Shown piece by piece: positions 3,411 to 32,206 of a stretch of 64,000 bases of DNA (position 1 is its first letter; each line of letters starts with the position of its first letter). The notes beneath the pieces are model-generated. The model was not told the origin of the DNA and made no database searches. It was given only the letters and a program-made list of their open reading frames with translations. The position numbers and the translations under genes are program-made. This DNA comes from Parcubacteria group bacterium GW2011_GWA2_42_14 (lineage in GTDB: Bacteria; Patescibacteriota; Minisyncoccia; Sungbacterales; GWA2-42-14). The stretch spans positions 9,073 to 73,072 of the forward strand of contig LCCV01000010.1 in the NCBI GenBank assembly GCA_000998135.1. The letters are read 5' to 3'.

Positions 3411-4034
3411 ATGAGGGTATTAGAAAAAGTTGAACGTCGTTTAGGTGAAAAGCTCTTTTTAAAAGGGGAGCGTTGTCTTGGGCCAAAATGCGCTCATATT
3501 CGCCGTCCTTATCCGCCTGGTGTTCACGGCAAGGGTTCGAGAGCCAGTAACTCTGAATTCGGAATTCAGCTTCGAGAAAAACAAAAAGTAAAATTTTTAT
3601 ACGGTCTTCGGGAGCGGATGCTTGCAAGATATTTCGGTAAAGCTCTTCGCGACAAAAAACATCCGACCGGAGATGCCCTTGTTAATACGCTTGAAAAACG
3701 TTTTGATAATGTTATTTTTAGGGCGGGTTTTGTCGTTTCCCGAAGCATCGCCCGTCATCTTGTAAGTTACGGGCACGTGCTTGTTAATAAACGCACGGTT
3801 ACCAAGCCTTCTTATTCGGTCAGAATCGGCGATATTATAGAATTGTCGCCTAAGGTTTTTAATAATCATGTTTTTGGCGAAGAATTTTTATTCCGTATCA
3901 AAAAACACGAAGCTCCGGAATGGATTAAATTGGATAAGGAAAAGAAAATCGCCGAAATTATAAAAGAGCCGTATGAAAGCGATTTAATTATTGACCCAAA
4001 TATAAAATTAGTTGTTGAGTACTATTCTCGTTAG
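3411..4034 (+). CDS. rpsD: 30S ribosomal protein S4
   Basis: S4 N-terminal Zn-ribbon-like region (CLGPKCAHIRRPYPPGVHG) plus S4 RNA-binding domain. Confidence 0.95.
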   Translation: MRVLEKVERRLGEKLFLKGERCLGPKCAHIRRPYPPGVHGKGSRASNSEFGIQLREKQKVKFLYGLRERMLARYFGKALRDKKHPTGDALVNTLEKRFDNVIFRAGFVVSRSIARHLVSYGHVLVNKRTVTKPSYSVRIGDIIELSPKVFNNHVFGEEFLFRIKKHEAPEWIKLDKEKKIAEIIKEPYESDLIIDPNIKLVVEYYSR

Positions 4035-4130
4035 CGACAAGAGACAAGAGACAAGCGACATGGCAATTTAAAAACGATACCAGTTTTTAAAAAAACATGT
4101 CTCATGTTTCATGTCACATGTTGCAAAAAA

Positions 4131-5084
4131 ATGATACCATTACCACAAAAACCAAAAGTAATCATCGAAGAAGGCAATAGGGGGGTTTATGAAATTGAGA
4201 GCTTGTATCCCGGATACGGCCATACTCTCGGCAATTCTTTAAGAAGAGTTCTTCTTTCTTCCCTAAGCGGCGCGGTAATAACTTCTGTAAAAATTGAGGG
4301 CGTGCAGCATGAATTCTCTACTATTCAGGGAGTTCTTGAAGATATGGTTGATATTATACTGAATTTAAAGCAGGTCAGATTTAAAATACACGGTGAAGGT
4401 TTTTATAAAATAAACCTTGAGGCCAAGGGAGAGGGTGAGGTTACAGCCAAAGATTTTTCATTGCCTTCTCAGGTGGAAGTGCAAAATCCCGAGCTTCATA
4501 TAGCCACCCTGACCGATAAAAAAACAGTTTTTAAATTAGAAGCGGAAGTTGAAACCGGCCTTGGTTATCAGTCGGTGGAATCAAGGAAAAAAGAAAAGGT
4601 TGAAATCGGTTCAATCGCGCTGGATGCTTCTTTTTCGCCGGTTAGGCTCGTAAATTACGAAGTGGAAAATATGCGGGTAGGGGACAGAACGGATTATAAC
4701 CTTCTTCGTATTCATATTAATACTGATAGCTCCATTGCGCCCAGAGAAGCCTTAAAACAGGCATCGGCTATTTTGGTGGGGCAATTTCAGGAACTTGCCG
4801 GCGTGTTTGAGGAAAAAGGAAAAGAGGCGCCTGAATTAAGGGCGGTGGAGGTTCTAGAGGGGCCCGGAGAAACATATGAAGAAGAATCTTCTAAGAAAAA
4901 AATAGAAGATCTAGGTTTTTCTAACAGAACCATGAATGCGTTGAATAAGGCGGGTATAAAGAATATAGGATCTTTGGTTAAAAAAACAGAAAAGAAGCTA
5001 AAGGAAATTGAAGGACTTGGAGATAAGGGCATACGGGAAATAAAGAAAGAATTGGGGAACCTTGGGGTTACATTGAAACAGTAA
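4131..5084 (+). CDS. rpoA: DNA-directed RNA polymerase alpha subunit
   Basis: Alpha N-terminal domain (GYGHTLGNSLRRVLLSSL) and C-terminal alphaCTD; start at ATG 4131 (MIPLPQKPKV). Confidence 0.95.
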   Translation: MIPLPQKPKVIIEEGNRGVYEIESLYPGYGHTLGNSLRRVLLSSLSGAVITSVKIEGVQHEFSTIQGVLEDMVDIILNLKQVRFKIHGEGFYKINLEAKGEGEVTAKDFSLPSQVEVQNPELHIATLTDKKTVFKLEAEVETGLGYQSVESRKKEKVEIGSIALDASFSPVRLVNYEVENMRVGDRTDYNLLRIHINTDSSIAPREALKQASAILVGQFQELAGVFEEKGKEAPELRAVEVLEGPGETYEEESSKKKIEDLGFSNRTMNALNKAGIKNIGSLVKKTEKKLKEIEGLGDKGIREIKKELGNLGVTLKQ

Positions 5085-5187: not shown

Positions 5188-5538
5188 ATGAAACATCTTA
5201 AGAAAGGCAGAAAATTCGGAAGAGTTAAGAAAGTTCGGGAGGCCTTGCTAAAAAGCCTTGCTTATTCGTTTTTAACGCATGGCCGAATAAATACTACCGA
5301 AGCCAAAGCAAAAGAACTTCGCGGTTTTATGGAAAAAATAATCACTCATGCCAAAGCGGGCGGGCTGGCTAAAAGGCGTTTAGTCGCGGGAATTTTACCG
5401 CCGCGTACCGTAAAAAAACTTTTTGAAGAAATAGCGCCTGATTTTAAAGATAGAAAAGGCGGATATACAAGAATTATCCGGCTTGGTGTAAGAAAAAGCG
5501 ACGGAGCCAGAATGGCGATTATTGAGTTGTTGAATTGA
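5188..5538 (+). CDS. rplQ: 50S ribosomal protein L17
   Basis: MKHLKKGRKFGR... L17 family sequence. Confidence 0.95.
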   Translation: MKHLKKGRKFGRVKKVREALLKSLAYSFLTHGRINTTEAKAKELRGFMEKIITHAKAGGLAKRRLVAGILPPRTVKKLFEEIAPDFKDRKGGYTRIIRLGVRKSDGARMAIIELLN

Positions 5539-5619
5539 AAAATTTTTGTAGGTTAAGGAAAACAACTACTTATAAAAGGTCGATGAATTTATGCTATTGA
5601 TGAATAAAAAATTAAAGTT

Positions 5620-5796
5620 ATGGAATTTGGACAAGAAAAAAGTTTTGGAGATCCTGCAAGGATCCTTGAAGAACAAAGATATCTCGGTCTTCTAAAAAAA
5701 ATAGAAAGTGGAATAGAATTATCAAAGACTGAACGGATAGATTATGAGCGGTTACACCCTTTATATGGTTTAGATAAACAAACAGTGAAAGAGTAA
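5620..5796 (+). CDS. possible small protein (58 aa, MEFGQEKSFGDPARILEEQRY...)
   Basis: Unannotated ORF in the 320-bp rplQ-rplM gap; a competing 34-aa ORF starts at 5591 in another frame. Confidence 0.25.
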   Translation: MEFGQEKSFGDPARILEEQRYLGLLKKIESGIELSKTERIDYERLHPLYGLDKQTVKE

Positions 5797-5805
5797 TTGT
5801 TATTT

Positions 5806-5850
5806 TACCATTTTTTAGATGCTACAGTTGTAAAATAACAACTGAGGGAT
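5806..5850. terminator. hairpin ttgttattttac...gtaaaataacaa
   Basis: Perfect 12-bp inverted repeat. Confidence 0.35.
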
Positions 5851-5859
5851 TTTAGTTGG

Positions 5860-6222
5860 TTGTTTAATAGTATGGAACACAAGTTTGACGCATCAGGCAA
5901 AATACTTGGAAGATTGGCAACGGAAATTGCCGGAATTTTGATGGATAAAAACACACCGTCTTTTGCTCCGAATAAAATGCCCAAAAATACGGCGGCTGTT
6001 GTTAATACCGACAATATCGTTGTTACCGGCAAAAAATTAAAAAATAAAATGTACTACCGCCATTCTGGGTATATTGGAAATTTGAAAACATCACGGCTTG
6101 AGGAAGAAATGAAAAAAGATTCACGCCGGGTTTTATACAAAGCCGTATGGAATATGCTGCCCAAAAATAAATTAAGAAAATTAAGGATGAAAAATTTGAA
6201 ACTTTATAAAAGAGATAAGTAG
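5860..6222 (+). CDS. rplM: 50S ribosomal protein L13 (short N-terminus)
   Basis: DASGKILGRLATEIA matches the L13 core motif; start uncertain (5860 or 5872). Confidence 0.9.
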   Translation: MFNSMEHKFDASGKILGRLATEIAGILMDKNTPSFAPNKMPKNTAAVVNTDNIVVTGKKLKNKMYYRHSGYIGNLKTSRLEEEMKKDSRRVLYKAVWNMLPKNKLRKLRMKNLKLYKRDK

Positions 6223-6321
6223 CGACCCCAATTTACGAATAGCACTCGAATGACCCGAATAACGCGAAACGGAAACATTTGAATCATTCGGGTGAATTCG
6301 AGTCGTATTAGAGTCGCCTCC
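6223..6321. repeat. ~100-bp hairpin-forming intergenic element, copy 2
   Basis: Near-identical to 5085-5184; fills the rplM-rpsI spacer. Confidence 0.7.
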
Positions 6322-6324
6322 TTA

Positions 6325-7017
6325 ATGATTAAGAAAGCAGATACAAAAGAAAAAAAAGCAAAAACCGTTGCTAAAAAGGCGGTGAAAGAAAAGGAATTAA
6401 AAAAAGAATCGGCTGTTAAAAAGCCGGTTGTTGAAGTTTCGGTTAAAGAGGTAATAAAACCGGTTAAGGCCGTTGATGATAATTCTTCTTTCGTTTCCGC
6501 CACGGGCGGAAAAACCGCGGAAGTTCAGGAAAAAAGGGTTGAAGCGAAAAAGAAAACTATTGAAAAAAAACCGGAAGAAAAAAAAGAGCCGGTTTCGGAC
6601 AAAACCCTTGAAATCGCGCCTAAGCCGGATCGTTATTGGGAAGCGGTGGGAAGAAGGAAAACGGCTATTGCCAGAGTCCGGCTTTTTACGAAAGGCGATA
6701 AGGTTTTAGTTGTCAACGGCAAGCCGTATGACGTTTATTTTCAGGATTTAGCGCATAGAGCCGTGGTGGAAGACGCTTTGAAAAAAATGAAGTCATTGGA
6801 AAGATTTCGGATGTCGGCTAAAGTTCAAGGCGGAGGAATCCACGCGCAGGCCGAGGCGATCAGGCACGGAATTTCCCGCGCTCTTACAAAATTTAACCCC
6901 GATTTCAAAAAACGTCTTCGTCGCGCTGGTTATTTAACCCGCGACCCAAGGATGAAAGAGCGCAAAAAATTCGGATTGAAAAAGGCAAGGCGCGCTCCCC
7001 AGTGGGCGAAGCGATAA
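6325..7017 (+). CDS. rpsI: 30S ribosomal protein S9 with ~100-aa lysine-rich N-terminal extension
   Basis: C-terminal 130 aa is canonical S9 (...GGGIHAQAEAIRHGISRAL...RDPRMKERKK.GLKKARRAPQ.AKR); N-terminus KKAVKEKELKK-rich; the ORF-track start 6292 lies inside the repeat, so ATG 6325 is preferred. Confidence 0.88.
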   Translation: MIKKADTKEKKAKTVAKKAVKEKELKKESAVKKPVVEVSVKEVIKPVKAVDDNSSFVSATGGKTAEVQEKRVEAKKKTIEKKPEEKKEPVSDKTLEIAPKPDRYWEAVGRRKTAIARVRLFTKGDKVLVVNGKPYDVYFQDLAHRAVVEDALKKMKSLERFRMSAKVQGGGIHAQAEAIRHGISRALTKFNPDFKKRLRRAGYLTRDPRMKERKKFGLKKARRAPQWAKR

Positions 7018-18857: not shown

Positions 18858-19969
18858 TTCTTGCCATTATTTCATTCATAATTTTGTTGGCCTTGGTTGT
18901 TTTGGTTCATGAATTCGGGCATTTTTGGGTTGCTCGCCGGTTCAAAATAAAAGTTGAAGAATTCGGTTTTGGTTTTTCCGGGCAGGAATTCGGTTTTCGT
19001 TTTCCGCCTAAACTTTTTAAATTTAAAAAAGGAGATGTGGTGTATTCCATAAATCCGTTACCTTTGGGCGGGTTTGTTAAGATTTTTGGCGAAGGCGGGG
19101 AAGGGGAAGGCAATCCCGAAAGTTTCATATCTCGTCCAATATGGCAGAGATTTTTAATACTTTTCGCGGGGGTTTTTATGAATATAGTTCTGGCATGGGT
19201 GTTATTTACCATTGGCGCCGGCTTTGGGGCGCCCGCGGTAGTGGACGAAACAACCATTGGTTCGGTTAAAGAAATTGGGGTCATGATTACGGCTGTTGCC
19301 GAAAATTCTCCCGCGAAAACAGCTGATATTCGGGTTGGAGATATGGCGGTGAGTTTGAAAAATATTGTTTCCGGTAACGCGTTGGAAATTAAGACCGTTG
19401 AAGAACTTCAGGGTTTTACCAAGGATAATCTTTCTCAAAAAGTTAAAATAACCATAAAAAGAGGAAAAATAATTATGGAAAAAGAATTGGTGCCACGGGC
19501 CAATCCCCCTGAAGGAGAGGGCGCTATGGGTGTGGGCATTGCTCTAGTGGGCATAGTTAAGGCGCCGTGGTATAAAGCTCCGTGGGAAGGTTTAAAAGAT
19601 GTTTTTCGGCTTTTTTATCTTATTGCCAGAGGATTTTATAATTTATTTTTGGATATATTTGTTTCGGGTACTATTCCAACCGATATTGCCGGGCCGGTAG
19701 GCATTGCGGCCTTGTCGGGACAATTTGCTTCTTTGGGCATTCTTTATTTTTTAAACTTTGTCGCTGCTATTTCCGTAAATCTTGCTTTTTTGAATGTTAT
19801 ACCGATTCCTGCGCTGGACGGAGGAAGAATCCTGTTTTTGCTTATTGAAAAAATAAAGGGTTCCAAAGTTGACCAAAAAGTGGAGCACGCGATTCACGGA
19901 GCATTCTTTGTTTTTTTGATGATTTTGGTATTTTTTGTGACTTATCGCGATTTGACAAGATTTTTGTAG
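18854..19969 (+). CDS. rseP: RIP metalloprotease RseP (site-2 protease)
   Basis: HEFGH zinc motif in TM1, PDZ region, C-terminal LDGG motif; 4-bp overlap with tlyA. Confidence 0.85.
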   Translation: MILAIISFIILLALVVLVHEFGHFWVARRFKIKVEEFGFGFSGQEFGFRFPPKLFKFKKGDVVYSINPLPLGGFVKIFGEGGEGEGNPESFISRPIWQRFLILFAGVFMNIVLAWVLFTIGAGFGAPAVVDETTIGSVKEIGVMITAVAENSPAKTADIRVGDMAVSLKNIVSGNALEIKTVEELQGFTKDNLSQKVKITIKRGKIIMEKELVPRANPPEGEGAMGVGIALVGIVKAPWYKAPWEGLKDVFRLFYLIARGFYNLFLDIFVSGTIPTDIAGPVGIAALSGQFASLGILYFLNFVAAISVNLAFLNVIPIPALDGGRILFLLIEKIKGSKVDQKVEHAIHGAFFVFLMILVFFVTYRDLTRFL

Positions 19970-19982
19970 TAGTTATAATGAA

Positions 19983-20291
19983 TTGGTTAGGTCTTTGATA
20001 ATGGAGGGTTGCATGAAACGAAACAAGGAAGTTAATCTTGATGAAGTAAAAACTTTTTATGGCCCGCACCCCGGTTTTGCCGGCGCGGCCATATCCATTC
20101 CGGAAGCGGTAAAAAAAGTTGCCGATGCGCTGAATGGTAAAAAATTATCCGTTCGCAAAGCAATACAAAAGATTCGGAAAGTTACCAATGGCAATCTTCG
20201 GGTTGTTATTATGGATATAAGCTTTATTATGCTTGAGATTAAAACAGAAGATGGGGCTCGTCATGGTTTTCGTGTTATTTGTTTCAAGTAA
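19983..20291 (+). CDS. hypothetical protein (102 aa)
   Basis: ORF followed by a strong terminator. Confidence 0.4.
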   Translation: MVRSLIMEGCMKRNKEVNLDEVKTFYGPHPGFAGAAISIPEAVKKVADALNGKKLSVRKAIQKIRKVTNGNLRVVIMDISFIMLEIKTEDGARHGFRVICFK

Positions 20292-29131: not shown

Positions 29132-30391
29132 ATGCGTCAATCTCAATTATTCGGGAAAACATTAAGAGAAGACCCTAAAGACGAGATTTCGGCCAATGCG
29201 CGGCTTTTAGAGCGCGGCGGTTTTGTTGCCAAAGAAATGGCCGGCATATATTCTTTTTTGCCGCTCGGTCTTCGCGTACTGGGGAAAGTCGCGAATATTA
29301 TCCGCGATGAATTGAATGAAAAGCTCGGGGCCCGGGAGATTTTGATGCCCGCGCTTCATCCGATTGAAAATTATGTAAAGACGGGCCGCGATAAGATTGA
29401 TATTCTTTTTCATACCGAACTTGCTTCGGGCGGCCATTTGGTTCTTGGCCAGAGCCACGAAGAGATTGTGGTGCCGCTTGCTAAGCGTTTTATTTCTTCT
29501 TATCACGATTTGCCGCTCGGGCTTTATCAGATTCAGACAAAATTCCGCAATGAGCCGAGGGCAAAATCCGGGCTTCTTCGCGGCCGGGAATTTATCATGA
29601 AAGATTTATACTCTTTTCACGCAACCGAGGATGATTTGGAAAAATATTATGAAAAGGCCAAAGACGCCTATAAAAATATATTCGCGCGTTTGGGTATTGG
29701 CGACATTACTTTTTTGACATTTGCTTCCGGCGGAACGTTCTCGCGCTACTCCCACGAATTTCAAACGATTACCGATGCCGGCGAGGATACGATTTATTTT
29801 TGTGAAAATTGCCTTATCGCAGTTAACGACGAAATTATCGGAGAACAGCCGTATTGCGCCAAGTGCAAGGCGCCTAGTGAAAAACTTTTGAAAAAAAGAG
29901 CCATTGAGGTCGGCAATATTTTTCCTCTGAAAACGAGGTATGCCGATGCTTTTGACTTGACTTATACGGATGAAACGGGCGTGTTAAAACCGGTTATAAT
30001 GGGTTGTTACGGCATTGGCCTTAGCCGTGTTATGGGCGCAATCGTAGAGGTGCATCATGACGAAAAAGGGATTTTGTGGCCGGAAACGGTTGCGCCGTTT
30101 AATGTTCATCTTGTGGAAATACCGGGCAAGAATAAAGCCGATATTGTTAAAAAAACGGCGGAAAAGTTTTATGAGGAACTGCTTGCCAAAAACATTGAAG
30201 TATTATATGATGACCGCGCGGATAAAACACCGGGCGAAAAGTTTGCTGATGCGGATTTAATAGGGATTCCGTTACGGGTGGTGGTATCGGAAAAAACCTT
30301 AGAGAAAAAGGGGGTGGAGGTTAAAAAACGGGGCGAGAAAGAAGCGAGGATTGTGTCGGAGAAAGAGATGTTGAAAATGCTTGAGAAATAG
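29132..30391 (+). CDS. proS: prolyl-tRNA synthetase (short form without editing insertion)
   Basis: Class II aaRS motifs (FRNEPRAKSGLLRGREF; GCYGIGLSRV) and C-terminal anticodon-binding domain. Confidence 0.9.
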   Translation: MRQSQLFGKTLREDPKDEISANARLLERGGFVAKEMAGIYSFLPLGLRVLGKVANIIRDELNEKLGAREILMPALHPIENYVKTGRDKIDILFHTELASGGHLVLGQSHEEIVVPLAKRFISSYHDLPLGLYQIQTKFRNEPRAKSGLLRGREFIMKDLYSFHATEDDLEKYYEKAKDAYKNIFARLGIGDITFLTFASGGTFSRYSHEFQTITDAGEDTIYFCENCLIAVNDEIIGEQPYCAKCKAPSEKLLKKRAIEVGNIFPLKTRYADAFDLTYTDETGVLKPVIMGCYGIGLSRVMGAIVEVHHDEKGILWPETVAPFNVHLVEIPGKNKADIVKKTAEKFYEELLAKNIEVLYDDRADKTPGEKFADADLIGIPLRVVVSEKTLEKKGVEVKKRGEKEARIVSEKEMLKMLEK

Positions 30392-30480
30392 AAGCAAAAA
30401 TGAACGCAAGACGTAACGCAAAATTATACGCAATTTGCGTTTAAGGTCGCGTGGTCATTTGCGTTTTATATTGCTTCTAC
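30390..30480. repeat. hairpin element AGAAGCAA...ACGCAATTTGCGTT...TTGCTTCTA, copy 2
   Basis: Related to 9811-9893. Confidence 0.5.
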
Positions 30481-30611
30481 AAAATAAAAAAAGGCCTACT
30501 TTTCTGTTTGGCTGACCGTAAGTTCAGTTGAACGTATTTTTGGAGCGAAAAAGAAAGAGCCCGACGATACCCATAAGAATATCGCCAGGCTGTGAGCCCT
30601 TGTGGGGGCTC

Positions 30612-30866
30612 TTAGCGCTTGTTGCGCTTGCGCCGGGGCGCGGTGCCGCGCGCGCGGTAGCCGCTGCGGAATCGGTCGGAGAGGCTGGTGGAGACGTGTG
30701 CCATCTCCATCTCCACCACGCTCGGTCCTCGCTTCTTCAGAAGCCCGCCGAGCGTGATGAATGCCTCTACGACATTCATGCCGCTTGCTACCGTTCTGCC
30801 GTCAAACTTGATGGCGACTCCGCCATCGTAGGCGGGTCGTGCATGGATGGAAATCCTGCCGCGCAT
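30612..30866 (-). CDS. small arginine-rich protein (84 aa) in a ~65% GC island; unknown function, probably foreign origin
   Basis: ATG preceded by AAGGAGA at -7; protein MRGRISIHARPAYDGGVAIKFDGRTVASGM...RSGYRARGTAPRRKRNKR; hairpin gagcccttgtgggggctc immediately 3' of the stop; the 128-aa ORF-track version adds an AT-rich N-terminus and is probably wrong. Confidence 0.5.
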   Translation of the reverse strand: MRGRISIHARPAYDGGVAIKFDGRTVASGMNVVEAFITLGGLLKKRGPSVVEMEMAHVSTSLSDRFRSGYRARGTAPRRKRNKR

Positions 30867-30975
30867 GCTGGTCTCCTTGGCCAATCGGCCTTTAGGGGGT
30901 TTGAGGCCACGGCGCTTAAAAATACGCCATTTTACTGCTAATCTAATTATAGCATAAATAAATATATTTGTCAAT

Positions 30976-31056
30976 ATGATAAATAAACTTCTCGGCATAT
31001 TTTCAAAAGACCCCGCACCAAATTCCGAAATAGTGCGAGGTAGAATTTGGGGTTAA
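30976..31056 (+). CDS. 26-codon upstream ORF whose first 12 codons (MINKLLGIFSKD) duplicate the MreB N-terminus
   Basis: All differences from mreB codons 1-12 are synonymous; 89 nt upstream of mreB. Confidence 0.3.
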   Translation: MINKLLGIFSKDPAPNSEIVRGRIWG

Positions 31057-31123
31057 CACCGCGGTAACGGCTTCGCCTTACGCCATTTTAAAAAGAAGTT
31101 CTTTTTGAGAATTGGTGCGGGGC
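31008..31123. repeat. ~115-nt element bounded by inverted repeat CCCCGCACCAA / TTGGTGCGGGG (mreB leader)
   Basis: gaccccgcaccaaattcc ... gaattggtgcggggc; related element at 56655-56775. Confidence 0.5.
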
Positions 31124-31144
31124 AAGTATCGAAATTGACCTATT

Positions 31145-32206
31145 ATGATAAATAAATTATTAGGAATTTTTTCTAAAGACATAGGTATTGACCTGGGAAC
31201 GGCCAATACTTTGGTTTACGTTCGTGGGAAGGGGATTGTGATAAATGAGCCGTCGGTGGTGGCGGTTAACCAGAAAACCGGACAGATTGTGGAGATTGGA
31301 ACAGAGGCCAAAAAAATGGTTGGCAGAACTCCTGCCTATATTATAGCATCCCGTCCTTTGGTTGAAGGCGTTATTTCCGATTTTGAAGTAACCGAGGAGA
31401 TGTTGCGTTATTTCATCCAAAAGGTTCACAAAGAAACCTTTTCCTTTTTTCCGAGGCCGCGAGTTGTGATTGGCATCCCATCGGAGGTAACCGAAGTTGA
31501 AAGGAGGGCGGTTGAGGATGCGGCCAGAAACGCGGGAGCCCGTGAAGTTTATTTGATTGAAGAGCCAATGGCCGCGGCCATTGGCGTGCGCATGCCCGTG
31601 CAGGAGGCGGTTGGTTCAATGGTGGTTGATATCGGCGGAGGTACTTCCGATATAGCCGTAATATCTCTTGGCGGAATTGTAGTATCCAAGAATTTAAGAA
31701 TTGCCGGAGATAAATTAAATGACGATATCATCCGTTTTGCCCGCGATGAATATAAACTTTTGTTGGGTGAGCGAACAGCCGAAGACATTAAAATTGCCAT
31801 TGGTTCGGCTTTTGAATTGGAGGAGCCCCTGGAAGCGGTTATGCGAGGCCGCGATTTGGTAACAGGTCTTCCCAAGGAAGTTGTGGTTGATGATTCGGAA
31901 ATCAGGAGAGCCATGCAGCATTCCAATAAAATCCTGGTTCAGGCGATAAAATCAGTGATTGAATCAACCCCTCCGGAACTGGTTGCCGACATAATGCATC
32001 GGGGCATAATTCTTGTCGGAGGCGGTTCGCTTCTTCGCGGACTTGATAAATTGGTAGCTCAAGAAACCAAAATGCCCACTCGCACCGCCGAAGACCCGTT
32101 AACCGCGGTAGTAAGGGGCACGGGAGTGGTGTTGGAAGACATAGACGCGCTAAGGGCTGTTTTAATCGGTTCGTCCTTTTATCAGAAAACACCAAGTACT
32201 TCATAA
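31145..32206 (+). CDS. mreB: rod shape-determining protein MreB
   Basis: Actin-like motifs; first gene of an mreBCD-mrdA cluster. Confidence 0.95.
   Translation: MINKLLGIFSKDIGIDLGTANTLVYVRGKGIVINEPSVVAVNQKTGQIVEIGTEAKKMVGRTPAYIIASRPLVEGVISDFEVTEEMLRYFIQKVHKETFSFFPRPRVVIGIPSEVTEVERRAVEDAARNAGAREVYLIEEPMAAAIGVRMPVQEAVGSMVVDIGGGTSDIAVISLGGIVVSKNLRIAGDKLNDDIIRFARDEYKLLLGERTAEDIKIAIGSAFELEEPLEAVMRGRDLVTGLPKEVVVDDSEIRRAMQHSNKILVQAIKSVIESTPPELVADIMHRGIILVGGGSLLRGLDKLVAQETKMPTRTAEDPLTAVVRGTGVVLEDIDALRAVLIGSSFYQKTPSTS

Follow-up and report, generated by a model that had tools for sequence, protein, structure and literature searches.

A GC-rich island between proS and mreB carries a predicted single-gene cassette

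In a 64-kb stretch of DNA from Parcubacteria group bacterium GW2011_GWA2_42_14 (the window, meaning that whole stretch), we analysed a short island rich in guanine and cytosine (GC) that lies between proS and mreB and carries on its minus strand a small open reading frame (ORF), named ORF84 here for its 84 codons. The MreB protein of this organism is identical to that of genomes named Candidatus Sungbacteria. The island (30556-30920) is the sole strongly GC-rich stretch in the 64 kb (0.60-0.65 compared with ~0.41). In 200-nt segments, GC content was 0.585-0.65 across 30500-30899 and 0.38-0.47 on either side, confirming the jump between proS and the mre operon that a first-pass annotation of this DNA had described. 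When 255-nt segments were ranked over the whole 64 kb, the island came first at 0.64 and the next unrelated region reached 0.545.

ORF84 (30866..30612) translates exactly as the first-pass annotation had written it. The Shine-Dalgarno (SD) sequence that it reported six nt before the ATG (30866-30864) and the hairpin directly after the stop codon (30614-30612) are likewise present. GC content at the three codon positions is 0.60/0.53/0.78, compared with ~0.50/0.36/0.40 in host ORFs. Third-position GC (GC3) is 0.776, ~6.5 standard deviations from the 0.40 ± 0.06 of 61 crude gene calls in the window, and the codon preference (AAG 5/5, AGC, GTC, CTC) is unlike that of the neighbouring genes. An SD core lies upstream of 8/61 calls, a count that hinges on their crude start positions; GC, codon usage and SD use are thus all anomalous, as had been claimed. 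Most of the 61 calls (50) are on the plus strand. A host dominated by leaderless genes was considered but is not claimed, as -10-like hexamers are not enriched 5-8 nt before the crude start codons.

Read on the minus strand, ORF84 sits in a predicted cassette of ~390 nt from promoter to terminator (Table 1), both of which are consensus matches. Exact TTGACA-N16-18-TATAAT sites occur twice in the 64 kb, compared with 0.05 expected, and the ORF84 promoter is one of them. The other, TTGACA-N16-TATAAT (19952-20016, plus strand), precedes an SD-led gene of ordinary GC content (GGAGG, ATG at 20014, MKRNKEVNLDEV...). Transcription of ORF84 would start at ~30939, judging from the promoter position. 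The leader was analysed by alignment and consensus folding of the window and three lineages that carry a homolog (L008, L009 and L017). All four retain the hairpin that abuts the SD (HP2), L017 with one compensatory change (GCCC/GGGC); support from covariation is thin because the sequences are few. Another relative, L019, has the leader GGCC-AUUUCU-GGCC-AAGGAGG, and the pattern GGCC-N3-7-GGCCAAGGAG occurs once in the window. The hairpin at the stop codon is GGGGCC-ACAA-GGCUCC in L008, with two pairs altered on both sides, and GAGCCC-AAA-GGGCUC in L009 (both from alignment A2).

Table 1. Features of the ORF84 locus in coordinates of the window; promoter, leader and terminator are predicted elements.
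Feature	Position	Strand	Remarks
Promoter, TTGACA-N17-TATAAT with TG before the -10	30946..30974	-	12/12 consensus; -35 at 30974-30969, -10 at 30951-30946
5' leader, ~73 nt	30867..30939	-	HP1, HP2 and SD
Hairpin HP1	30909-30930	-	in leader
Hairpin HP2, GGCC-GAUU-GGCC	30879-30890	-	directly abuts SD
SD, AAGGAGA	30872-30878	-	six nt before ATG
Coding sequence (CDS), 84-aa basic protein (stop included)	30612..30866	-	GC 0.64, GC3 0.78, net charge +12
Stop-proximal hairpin, GAGCCC-CCACAA-GGGCUC	30594..30611	-	read in sequence (plus strand gagccc-ttgtgg-gggctc)
Intrinsic terminator, 15-pair stem and CUUUCUUUUU tail	30548..30591	-	conserved in L008 and L009
Whole inserted segment, proS to original mreB start, ~580 nt	30392..30975	.	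12-20 nt in sister genomes
proS	29132-30391		neighbour of island
mreB	31145-32206		neighbour of island

ORF84 is a protein-coding gene under purifying selection

The identical 84-aa protein was read on 13 contigs from ENA, JGI and Logan assemblies of several samples. On all of them the flanks are constant, with gapA-proS on one side and mreB-mreC-mreD-pbp2-greA on the other. Two diverged orthologs (L008 and L009) each encode a protein 82% identical to that of the window. Substitutions among the three genes, by codon position, number [8,6,19], [9,6,32] and [16,9,36], an excess at third positions, and the ratio of nonsynonymous to synonymous divergence (dN/dS) is 0.11-0.27. The sole indel among these orthologs is one whole codon. 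The codon-position pattern, dN/dS and the codon-sized indel together demonstrate that ORF84 is a real coding gene under purifying selection. Two other frames were rejected: a plus-strand ORF of 137 aa across the island is split into pieces of 75 and 56 aa in L009, and a longer minus-strand ORF of 128 aa (start 30998) overlaps the promoter and has an extension that is not conserved.

The family is rare and has no annotation

A profile search of 1.84 billion representatives (E ≤ 0.001) recovered only 17 proteins (clusters). A word-indexed search of 5.8 billion clusters added one further member; one metagenome scan detected no relative, and a second yielded L018 and L019. No relative was found in 185,579 GTDB species genomes, nor by a scan of viral contigs and tblastn of phage and plasmid collections. 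Because of this rarity (17 clusters among 1.84 billion, none in GTDB species genomes), ORF84 is not a common core gene of the candidate phyla radiation (CPR); a match to such a gene was one circumstance that the first-pass annotation had thought could undo its interpretation. Its failure to assign a family stands: Pfam (searched with 16 members, E ≤ 1), NCBIfam, PHROGs and PADLOC gave no match, and the single match of a PDB profile search, to GyrB (E = 0.35), was treated as chance. Structure searches returned generic small alpha/beta folds only, and literature searches turned up nothing specific.

An AlphaFold2 (AF2) model built from 16 sequences had a predicted local distance difference test (pLDDT) score of 85.7 and was used in preference to one from three sequences (pLDDT 55). 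It predicts strands at residues 4-9, 17-21, 24-30 and 50-55 and helices at 32-46 and 60-71, that is, a beta-beta-beta-alpha-beta-alpha core followed by a basic tail of lower confidence. Across the family the core reads approximately as hydrophobic strand - DGG - strand - DG - strand - GLN.[VIM]E[AT]F..L[AG]G - GP..V - strand - VS...F..GY. Conserved positions are mostly Gly and hydrophobic, so their role is structural; no polar residue is invariant, and there are no invariant catalytic residues. ORF84 also defines a new, so far unannotated family of small proteins whose fold is predicted with confidence.

The C-terminal end varies among family members. The net charge of ORF84 is +12, of which the tail contributes +10, and strongly basic tails are found in P0001-5, P0010, P0012, P0015 and P0018. 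The basic tail is absent from P0006-8, P0013 and P0017, and a Cys/His-rich extension is present in P0011, P0014 and P0020. In P0012 and P0015 the core is tandemly duplicated. We infer a small cytoplasmic product with a variable C-terminal module, predicted to be an Arg/Lys-rich disordered tail or, in some relatives, a zinc-ribbon-like domain. The earlier suggestion of nucleic-acid binding through the basic tail is plausible, and the protein probably binds nucleic acid (DNA, RNA or the ribosome) rather than acting as an enzyme.

Relatives share the cassette architecture and its GC-rich predicted transcript

Besides the window, we examined nine lineages that bear a homolog (L008, L009, L010, L011, L012-14, L015, L016, L017 and L018/19). 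In all nine, the family gene has a GC3 of 0.62-0.85, compared with 0.32-0.45 in flanking genes and a GC content of 0.39-0.46 in the rest of the contig. The distant relatives are 29-49% identical to ORF84 and lie on other AT-rich contigs, and no high-GC home genome for the family was found among the nine lineages.

The predicted expression signals recur with the gene. TTGACA-N17-TATAAT or TTGACT-N17-TATAAT precedes it in eight cassettes at seven loci (window, L009, L010, L011 twice, L016, L017 and L019), and L015 has no exact match. A leader hairpin is found in all cassettes with readable upstream sequence and a strong SD in most; the leader of ~70 nt with its SD-adjacent hairpin belongs to the close subfamily. 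GC-rich hairpin terminators follow the homologs in L010, L011, L012, L015 and L017. Over the eight cassettes, GC content rises from 0.10-0.24 in the promoter to 0.38-0.57 in the leader and 0.56-0.64 in the CDS, stays at 0.50-0.62 over the 60 nt past the stop (3' untranslated region) and falls to 0.28-0.41 in the next 100 nt. Neighbours predicted to be co-transcribed are also GC-rich (L017b, L017c and L011b). Since the rise in GC is bounded by the predicted transcript and extends to co-transcribed genes, the anomaly tracks the predicted transcript rather than a block of imported DNA. 

The cassettes occupy different places and keep different company. L010 and L011 have theirs near dnaX, that of L016 lies between a lytic transglycosylase gene and prfA, and no partner gene is conserved across the family loci. 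In L017 (259-913), a GC-rich operon of three genes, each with its own SD, lies beside mreB: a family member (96 aa, 49% identical), a hydrophobic peptide of 42 aa (MLKLIGFLMVSGVILWF...) and a basic protein of 67 aa whose last residues, KRG, are also those of the family member heading the operon. L011 has two adjacent cassettes (47-730 and 774-1195), in which promoter plus leader (77 nt) are 88% identical and the terminators 95% identical. In one, the family member is fused to a Cys/His-rich domain; the other codes for that domain alone (86 aa).

The insertion is old and the junction is variable

In two sister Sungbacteria (overall MreB identity 89% and 87%, and 92% within the first 170 residues), the distance from the proS stop to the mreB ATG is 20 nt (L020) and 12 nt (L022), and tblastn found no ORF84 relative in L020-L024. 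As the sister genomes have 12-20 nt and no homolog on those contigs, the ~580-nt segment between proS and mreB is an insertion, and a comparison proposed in the first-pass annotation, whether related genomes lack the island, is answered by these two gaps. In L009 the gene lies between the same proS and mreB, and in L008 it adjoins proS. Nucleotide identity is 78-85% in the flanks and 81-87% in ORF84. Between the window and L009, synonymous divergence (dS) is 0.82 for ORF84 and 0.94 for the flanking mreB; therefore, the insertion predates their split. On this estimate the acquisition is not recent, and the gene would have been inherited vertically since insertion. Of the 'recent horizontal acquisition' first proposed, the insertion and its patchy distribution hold, and 'recent' does not.

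The L019 homolog is 44% identical to ORF84 where the MreB proteins of the two hosts are only 48% identical; within the clade, the corresponding values are 82% for ORF84 and 97% for MreB. L019 also has the same hairpin-SD leader. Similarity across distant hosts, combined with absence from intermediate lineages, points to transfer between Parcubacteria. Proximity to mreB recurs in very distant hosts: the L019 cassette (4001-4240) is 1.2 kb from mreB (5413-6414), and the L017 relative is divergent from mreB.

At the mreB side of the same junction, L024 (MreB 96% identical) has a different divergent SD-led gene (1-90; AAGGAGGAAACC-ATG, METKRVV...). The proS/mreB junction is therefore a variable spot, and it seems to be a hotspot for different insertions, set among housekeeping genes. 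At the proS end of the window segment, a 91-nt hairpin with repeated ACGCAA/TTGCGT runs from the proS stop (30389-30479, plus strand; -34.5 kcal/mol, z-score (z) = -4.7). It is not conserved in the L008 and L009 spacers, and an overlapping Rfam match to the aspC motif (E = 6) is probably chance.

The composition probably belongs to the cassette

The whole predicted transcript folds at -188 kcal/mol (z = -7.1 against dinucleotide shuffles). When the CDS was compared with synonymous-codon shuffles, excess structure was found in 5/10 members (window -4.7, L009 -2.9, L010 -2.7, L012 -5.6 and L019 -5.8); 14 host gene pieces of 255 nt had a mean z of -0.3 and a minimum of -1.9. With every examined family member GC-rich along its predicted transcript, the unusual composition is attributed to the cassette and is no proof of recent import; the first-pass annotation was probably mistaken about what its GC signal means.

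We give a probability of roughly 0.55 to the following interpretation: ORF84 is a rare autonomous GC-rich cassette that moves among Parcubacteria, has an intrinsic or RNA-selected composition, and produces a stable mRNA and a nucleic-acid-binding protein. In one Candidatus Sungbacteria sublineage (Parcubacteria, CPR), a single-gene cassette would have entered the tight junction of proS and mreB on the opposite strand, and its very rare, unannotated family would have moved between distant groundwater Parcubacteria. The AT-rich sigma-70 promoter would drive strong transcription of the SD-led cassette, and 5' hairpins, GC-rich body and 3' hairpins together would make its mRNA long-lived and efficiently translated. 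The GC-richness would be selected at the RNA level, or at least be cassette-intrinsic, rather than left over from a high-GC donor. Finally, the folded core may be joined to exchangeable ends that bind nucleic acid, in the form of a basic tail or of a zinc-ribbon-like domain. In this scheme we infer the transcription start, expression level, mRNA stability, binding function and transfer route from sequence.

Several observations count against this interpretation. The start of transcription, the stability of the mRNA and the amount of protein are all predicted, and the context survey of the family excludes 9/17 clusters (P0006, P0007, P0009, P0010, P0012, P0013, P0015, P0018 and P0019). The basic tail is strong in only about half of the family. 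As for an islet, the composition deviates and the site is empty in relatives, but signs of recency and mobility were not found: the cassette has no mobility gene, target duplication or terminal repeat, and the 64-kb window has no tRNA. The other five members have no excess CDS structure (L008 -1.6; L011, L015, L016 and L017 ~0), and base pairing within the CDS is not maintained across the window, L008 and L009, leaving a specific RNA fold unsupported. Any selection on the RNA would therefore act on general stability or compactness and not on a defined fold. Lastly, GC3 has decayed within the clade, from 0.85 in the inferred ancestor to 0.73-0.80 now, which resembles amelioration.

That decay also argues for a plain horizontal acquisition from a high-GC donor that is still ameliorating, with the anomalies as a donor fingerprint and no selection on RNA composition. 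We regard this as possible but doubtful. The net loss is read from polarised third-position changes (19 from GC to AT and 7 from AT to GC), the sister genomes have an empty site, and an SD-led start is atypical of this genome. However, all loci examined are AT-rich contigs in which the gene stands out as a local GC island, and the same trait is seen at 29-49% identity. The promoter and spacer are at 10-24% GC and the rise starts past the predicted transcription start, where imported DNA would not be expected to stop. The rate of decay also fits poorly: by a rough estimate, neutral decay towards 0.40 at a dS of ~0.8 would give a GC3 of ~0.67, below the observed 0.73-0.80. AT-to-GC changes occurred at 7/12 AT sites compared with ~2 estimated under host bias, and imply an equilibrium GC3 of ~0.67 rather than 0.40, although these counts are small. 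On balance we favour RNA-level selection plus mobility over a fading donor composition, and hold this view loosely.

Possible effects on mreB and other explanations

Its position could give the cassette a side effect, since the predicted ORF84 promoter would overlap the original mreB promoter region on the other strand. Taken as the main function, this would mean that the cassette acts in cis on the mreB-mreC-mreD-pbp2 operon, with promoter overlap, lost read-through from proS, and transcription of ORF84 competing with or gating that of the cell-shape genes. In L003 and L009, which lack a 169-bp insert present in the window, the mreB ATG is 1 nt from the ORF84 -35 box, and a TATATT within the spacer of the ORF84 promoter lies 7 nt before that ATG. 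The short proS-mreB gaps of the sisters suggest co-transcription, and homologs also occur beside or near mreB in L017 and L019. Yet other members lie elsewhere (L010 and L011 near dnaX, L016 by prfA), the 169-bp insert separates the functional mreB start of the window from the promoter, and purifying selection on the protein argues for a product that acts in trans. We consider a cis role unlikely. Also unlikely is a broader scenario in which groundwater Parcubacteria exchange tiny cassettes whose transcripts are kept GC-rich and structured by selection in SD-poor, AT-rich genomes, and which land repeatedly beside mreB, where their protein or promoter would modulate the cell-shape and cell-wall machinery.

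The 169-bp indel (31006-31174, with repeats at 30975-31011 and 31144-31180) falls at mreB codon 12. The insert is present in the window and in 6/7 contigs of the same strain, and absent from L003 (12 mismatches in 9.9 kb) and L009. It comprises 134 nt with inverted repeats at the ends (CCCCGCACCAA.../...TTGGTGCGGGG; fold z = -3.6), together with a second copy, 81% identical, of the first 35 nt of mreB. A remnant ORF of 26 codons (30976-31056) is left before the functional mreB start at 31145. The insert resembles a foreign mreB upstream region brought in by recombination, or else a small hairpin element. In the arrangement without it (equivalents of window 30940-30978 in L003 and L009), the divergent promoters would overlap completely, and mreB may be leaderless.

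It is improbable that the functional product is instead an RNA, either structured and non-coding or dual-function, with ORF84 incidental or secondary. Structural RNA genes of AT-rich genomes typically look like this, a GC-rich island preceded by a consensus promoter; the transcript fold is strong, and the leader and stop hairpins are conserved with a few compensatory changes. Against this stand the coding signals of ORF84 (third-position excess, dN/dS and codon-sized indel) and protein homology down to 29% identity. Codon periodicity is thus present, whereas helices within the CDS are unconserved among the orthologs and half of the family has no excess structure. Rfam returned no match over the whole window at the gathering score; at E ≤ 10 over 30380-31160 matches were at chance level, with one in the island (E = 1.4) that is not credible. 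ARAGORN detected no tRNA or tmRNA in the 64 kb.

ORF84 is very unlikely to be a selfish or conflict element (a toxin-antitoxin, phage-defence or anti-defence gene, for example). Patchy distribution, small size, own expression signals and a variable insertion hotspot (L024) would suit such an element, as would the L017 operon with its 42-aa hydrophobic peptide. However, PADLOC, PHROGs and the phage, plasmid and viral-contig searches gave no match, the window has no partner gene, and the family lacks a catalytic signature. An assembly chimera (the other circumstance that the first-pass annotation had thought could undo its interpretation) or a contaminating fragment, suggested by the compositional jump and nothing else, is excluded because 13 contigs from different samples carry the identical gene with the same flanks, and because diverged orthologs adjoin proS (and in L009 mreB as well).

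Significance

ORF84 holds up as a genuine finding, of more interest than the usual hypothetical gene. Compositional islands are usually read as recent imports; the ORF84 anomaly stays within the predicted transcript, is still present at saturating synonymous divergence and recurs in all relatives examined. The island may thus illustrate selection for mRNA composition in organisms not yet culturable, and it supplies a specific instance of genes exchanged across distant CPR lineages, at a junction of housekeeping operons. Should the link to mreB hold, the cassette would point to an accessory cell-shape regulator in ultra-small bacteria. Practical value is modest unless expression and binding are demonstrated.

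Comparison with known systems

Among proteins of known structure, YegP/UPF0339 (DUF1508; PDB 2k49, 2knr) gives no Pfam or profile match at any threshold; any similarity would be that of a common small fold, and ORF84 differs by an extra strand, a second helix and the basic tail. The periplasmic domain of TolR/ExbD (PDB 5by4, 2jwk) has 5-11% sequence identity (Foldseek E = 4.3), but ORF84 has no long hydrophobic anchor or signal stretch evident by eye and no tol/exb context. Arg/Lys-rich tails occur in ribosomal, nucleoid and viral capsid proteins, and ORF84 similarly joins a folded core to a disordered basic C-terminal extension (RARGTAPRRKRNKR). Unlike basic-tailed ribosomal and nucleoid proteins, its family is far too rare for a core component and the tail is not conserved across it. 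Lineage-wide presence, typical of a ribosomal protein, was not found, since the gene is absent from sister Sungbacteria contigs and GTDB species genomes. Of the autoregulated leader that such a protein may have, the one feature seen is the conserved SD-adjacent hairpin.

At the RNA level, 5' stem-loops and SD sequences that stabilise mRNA, such as the E. coli ompA leader hairpin and the Bacillus thuringiensis cry3A STAB-SD, protect transcripts from decay that depends on the 5' end. By analogy, the predicted ORF84 transcript would resemble them, with a leader hairpin near its 5' end, a strong SD and a 3' terminator hairpin. There is no sequence relation, and here the CDS is also GC-rich and, in half of the members, has excess structure.

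A parallel is also seen with phage morons, which are autonomous accessory gene cassettes with their own promoter and terminator, placed between otherwise adjacent genes. ORF84 is likewise a single gene with its own predicted promoter and terminator, a deviant composition, and presence or absence among relatives. It differs in lying among gapA, proS, mreBCD, pbp2 and greA, with no prophage, phage genes or viral relatives, and in that its compositional offset is limited to the predicted transcript and recurs in the family. In conclusion, ORF84 is an accessory, moron-like cassette encoding an orphan small basic protein, and what is unusual about it is a GC-richness that stays within the predicted transcript and is common to its family.

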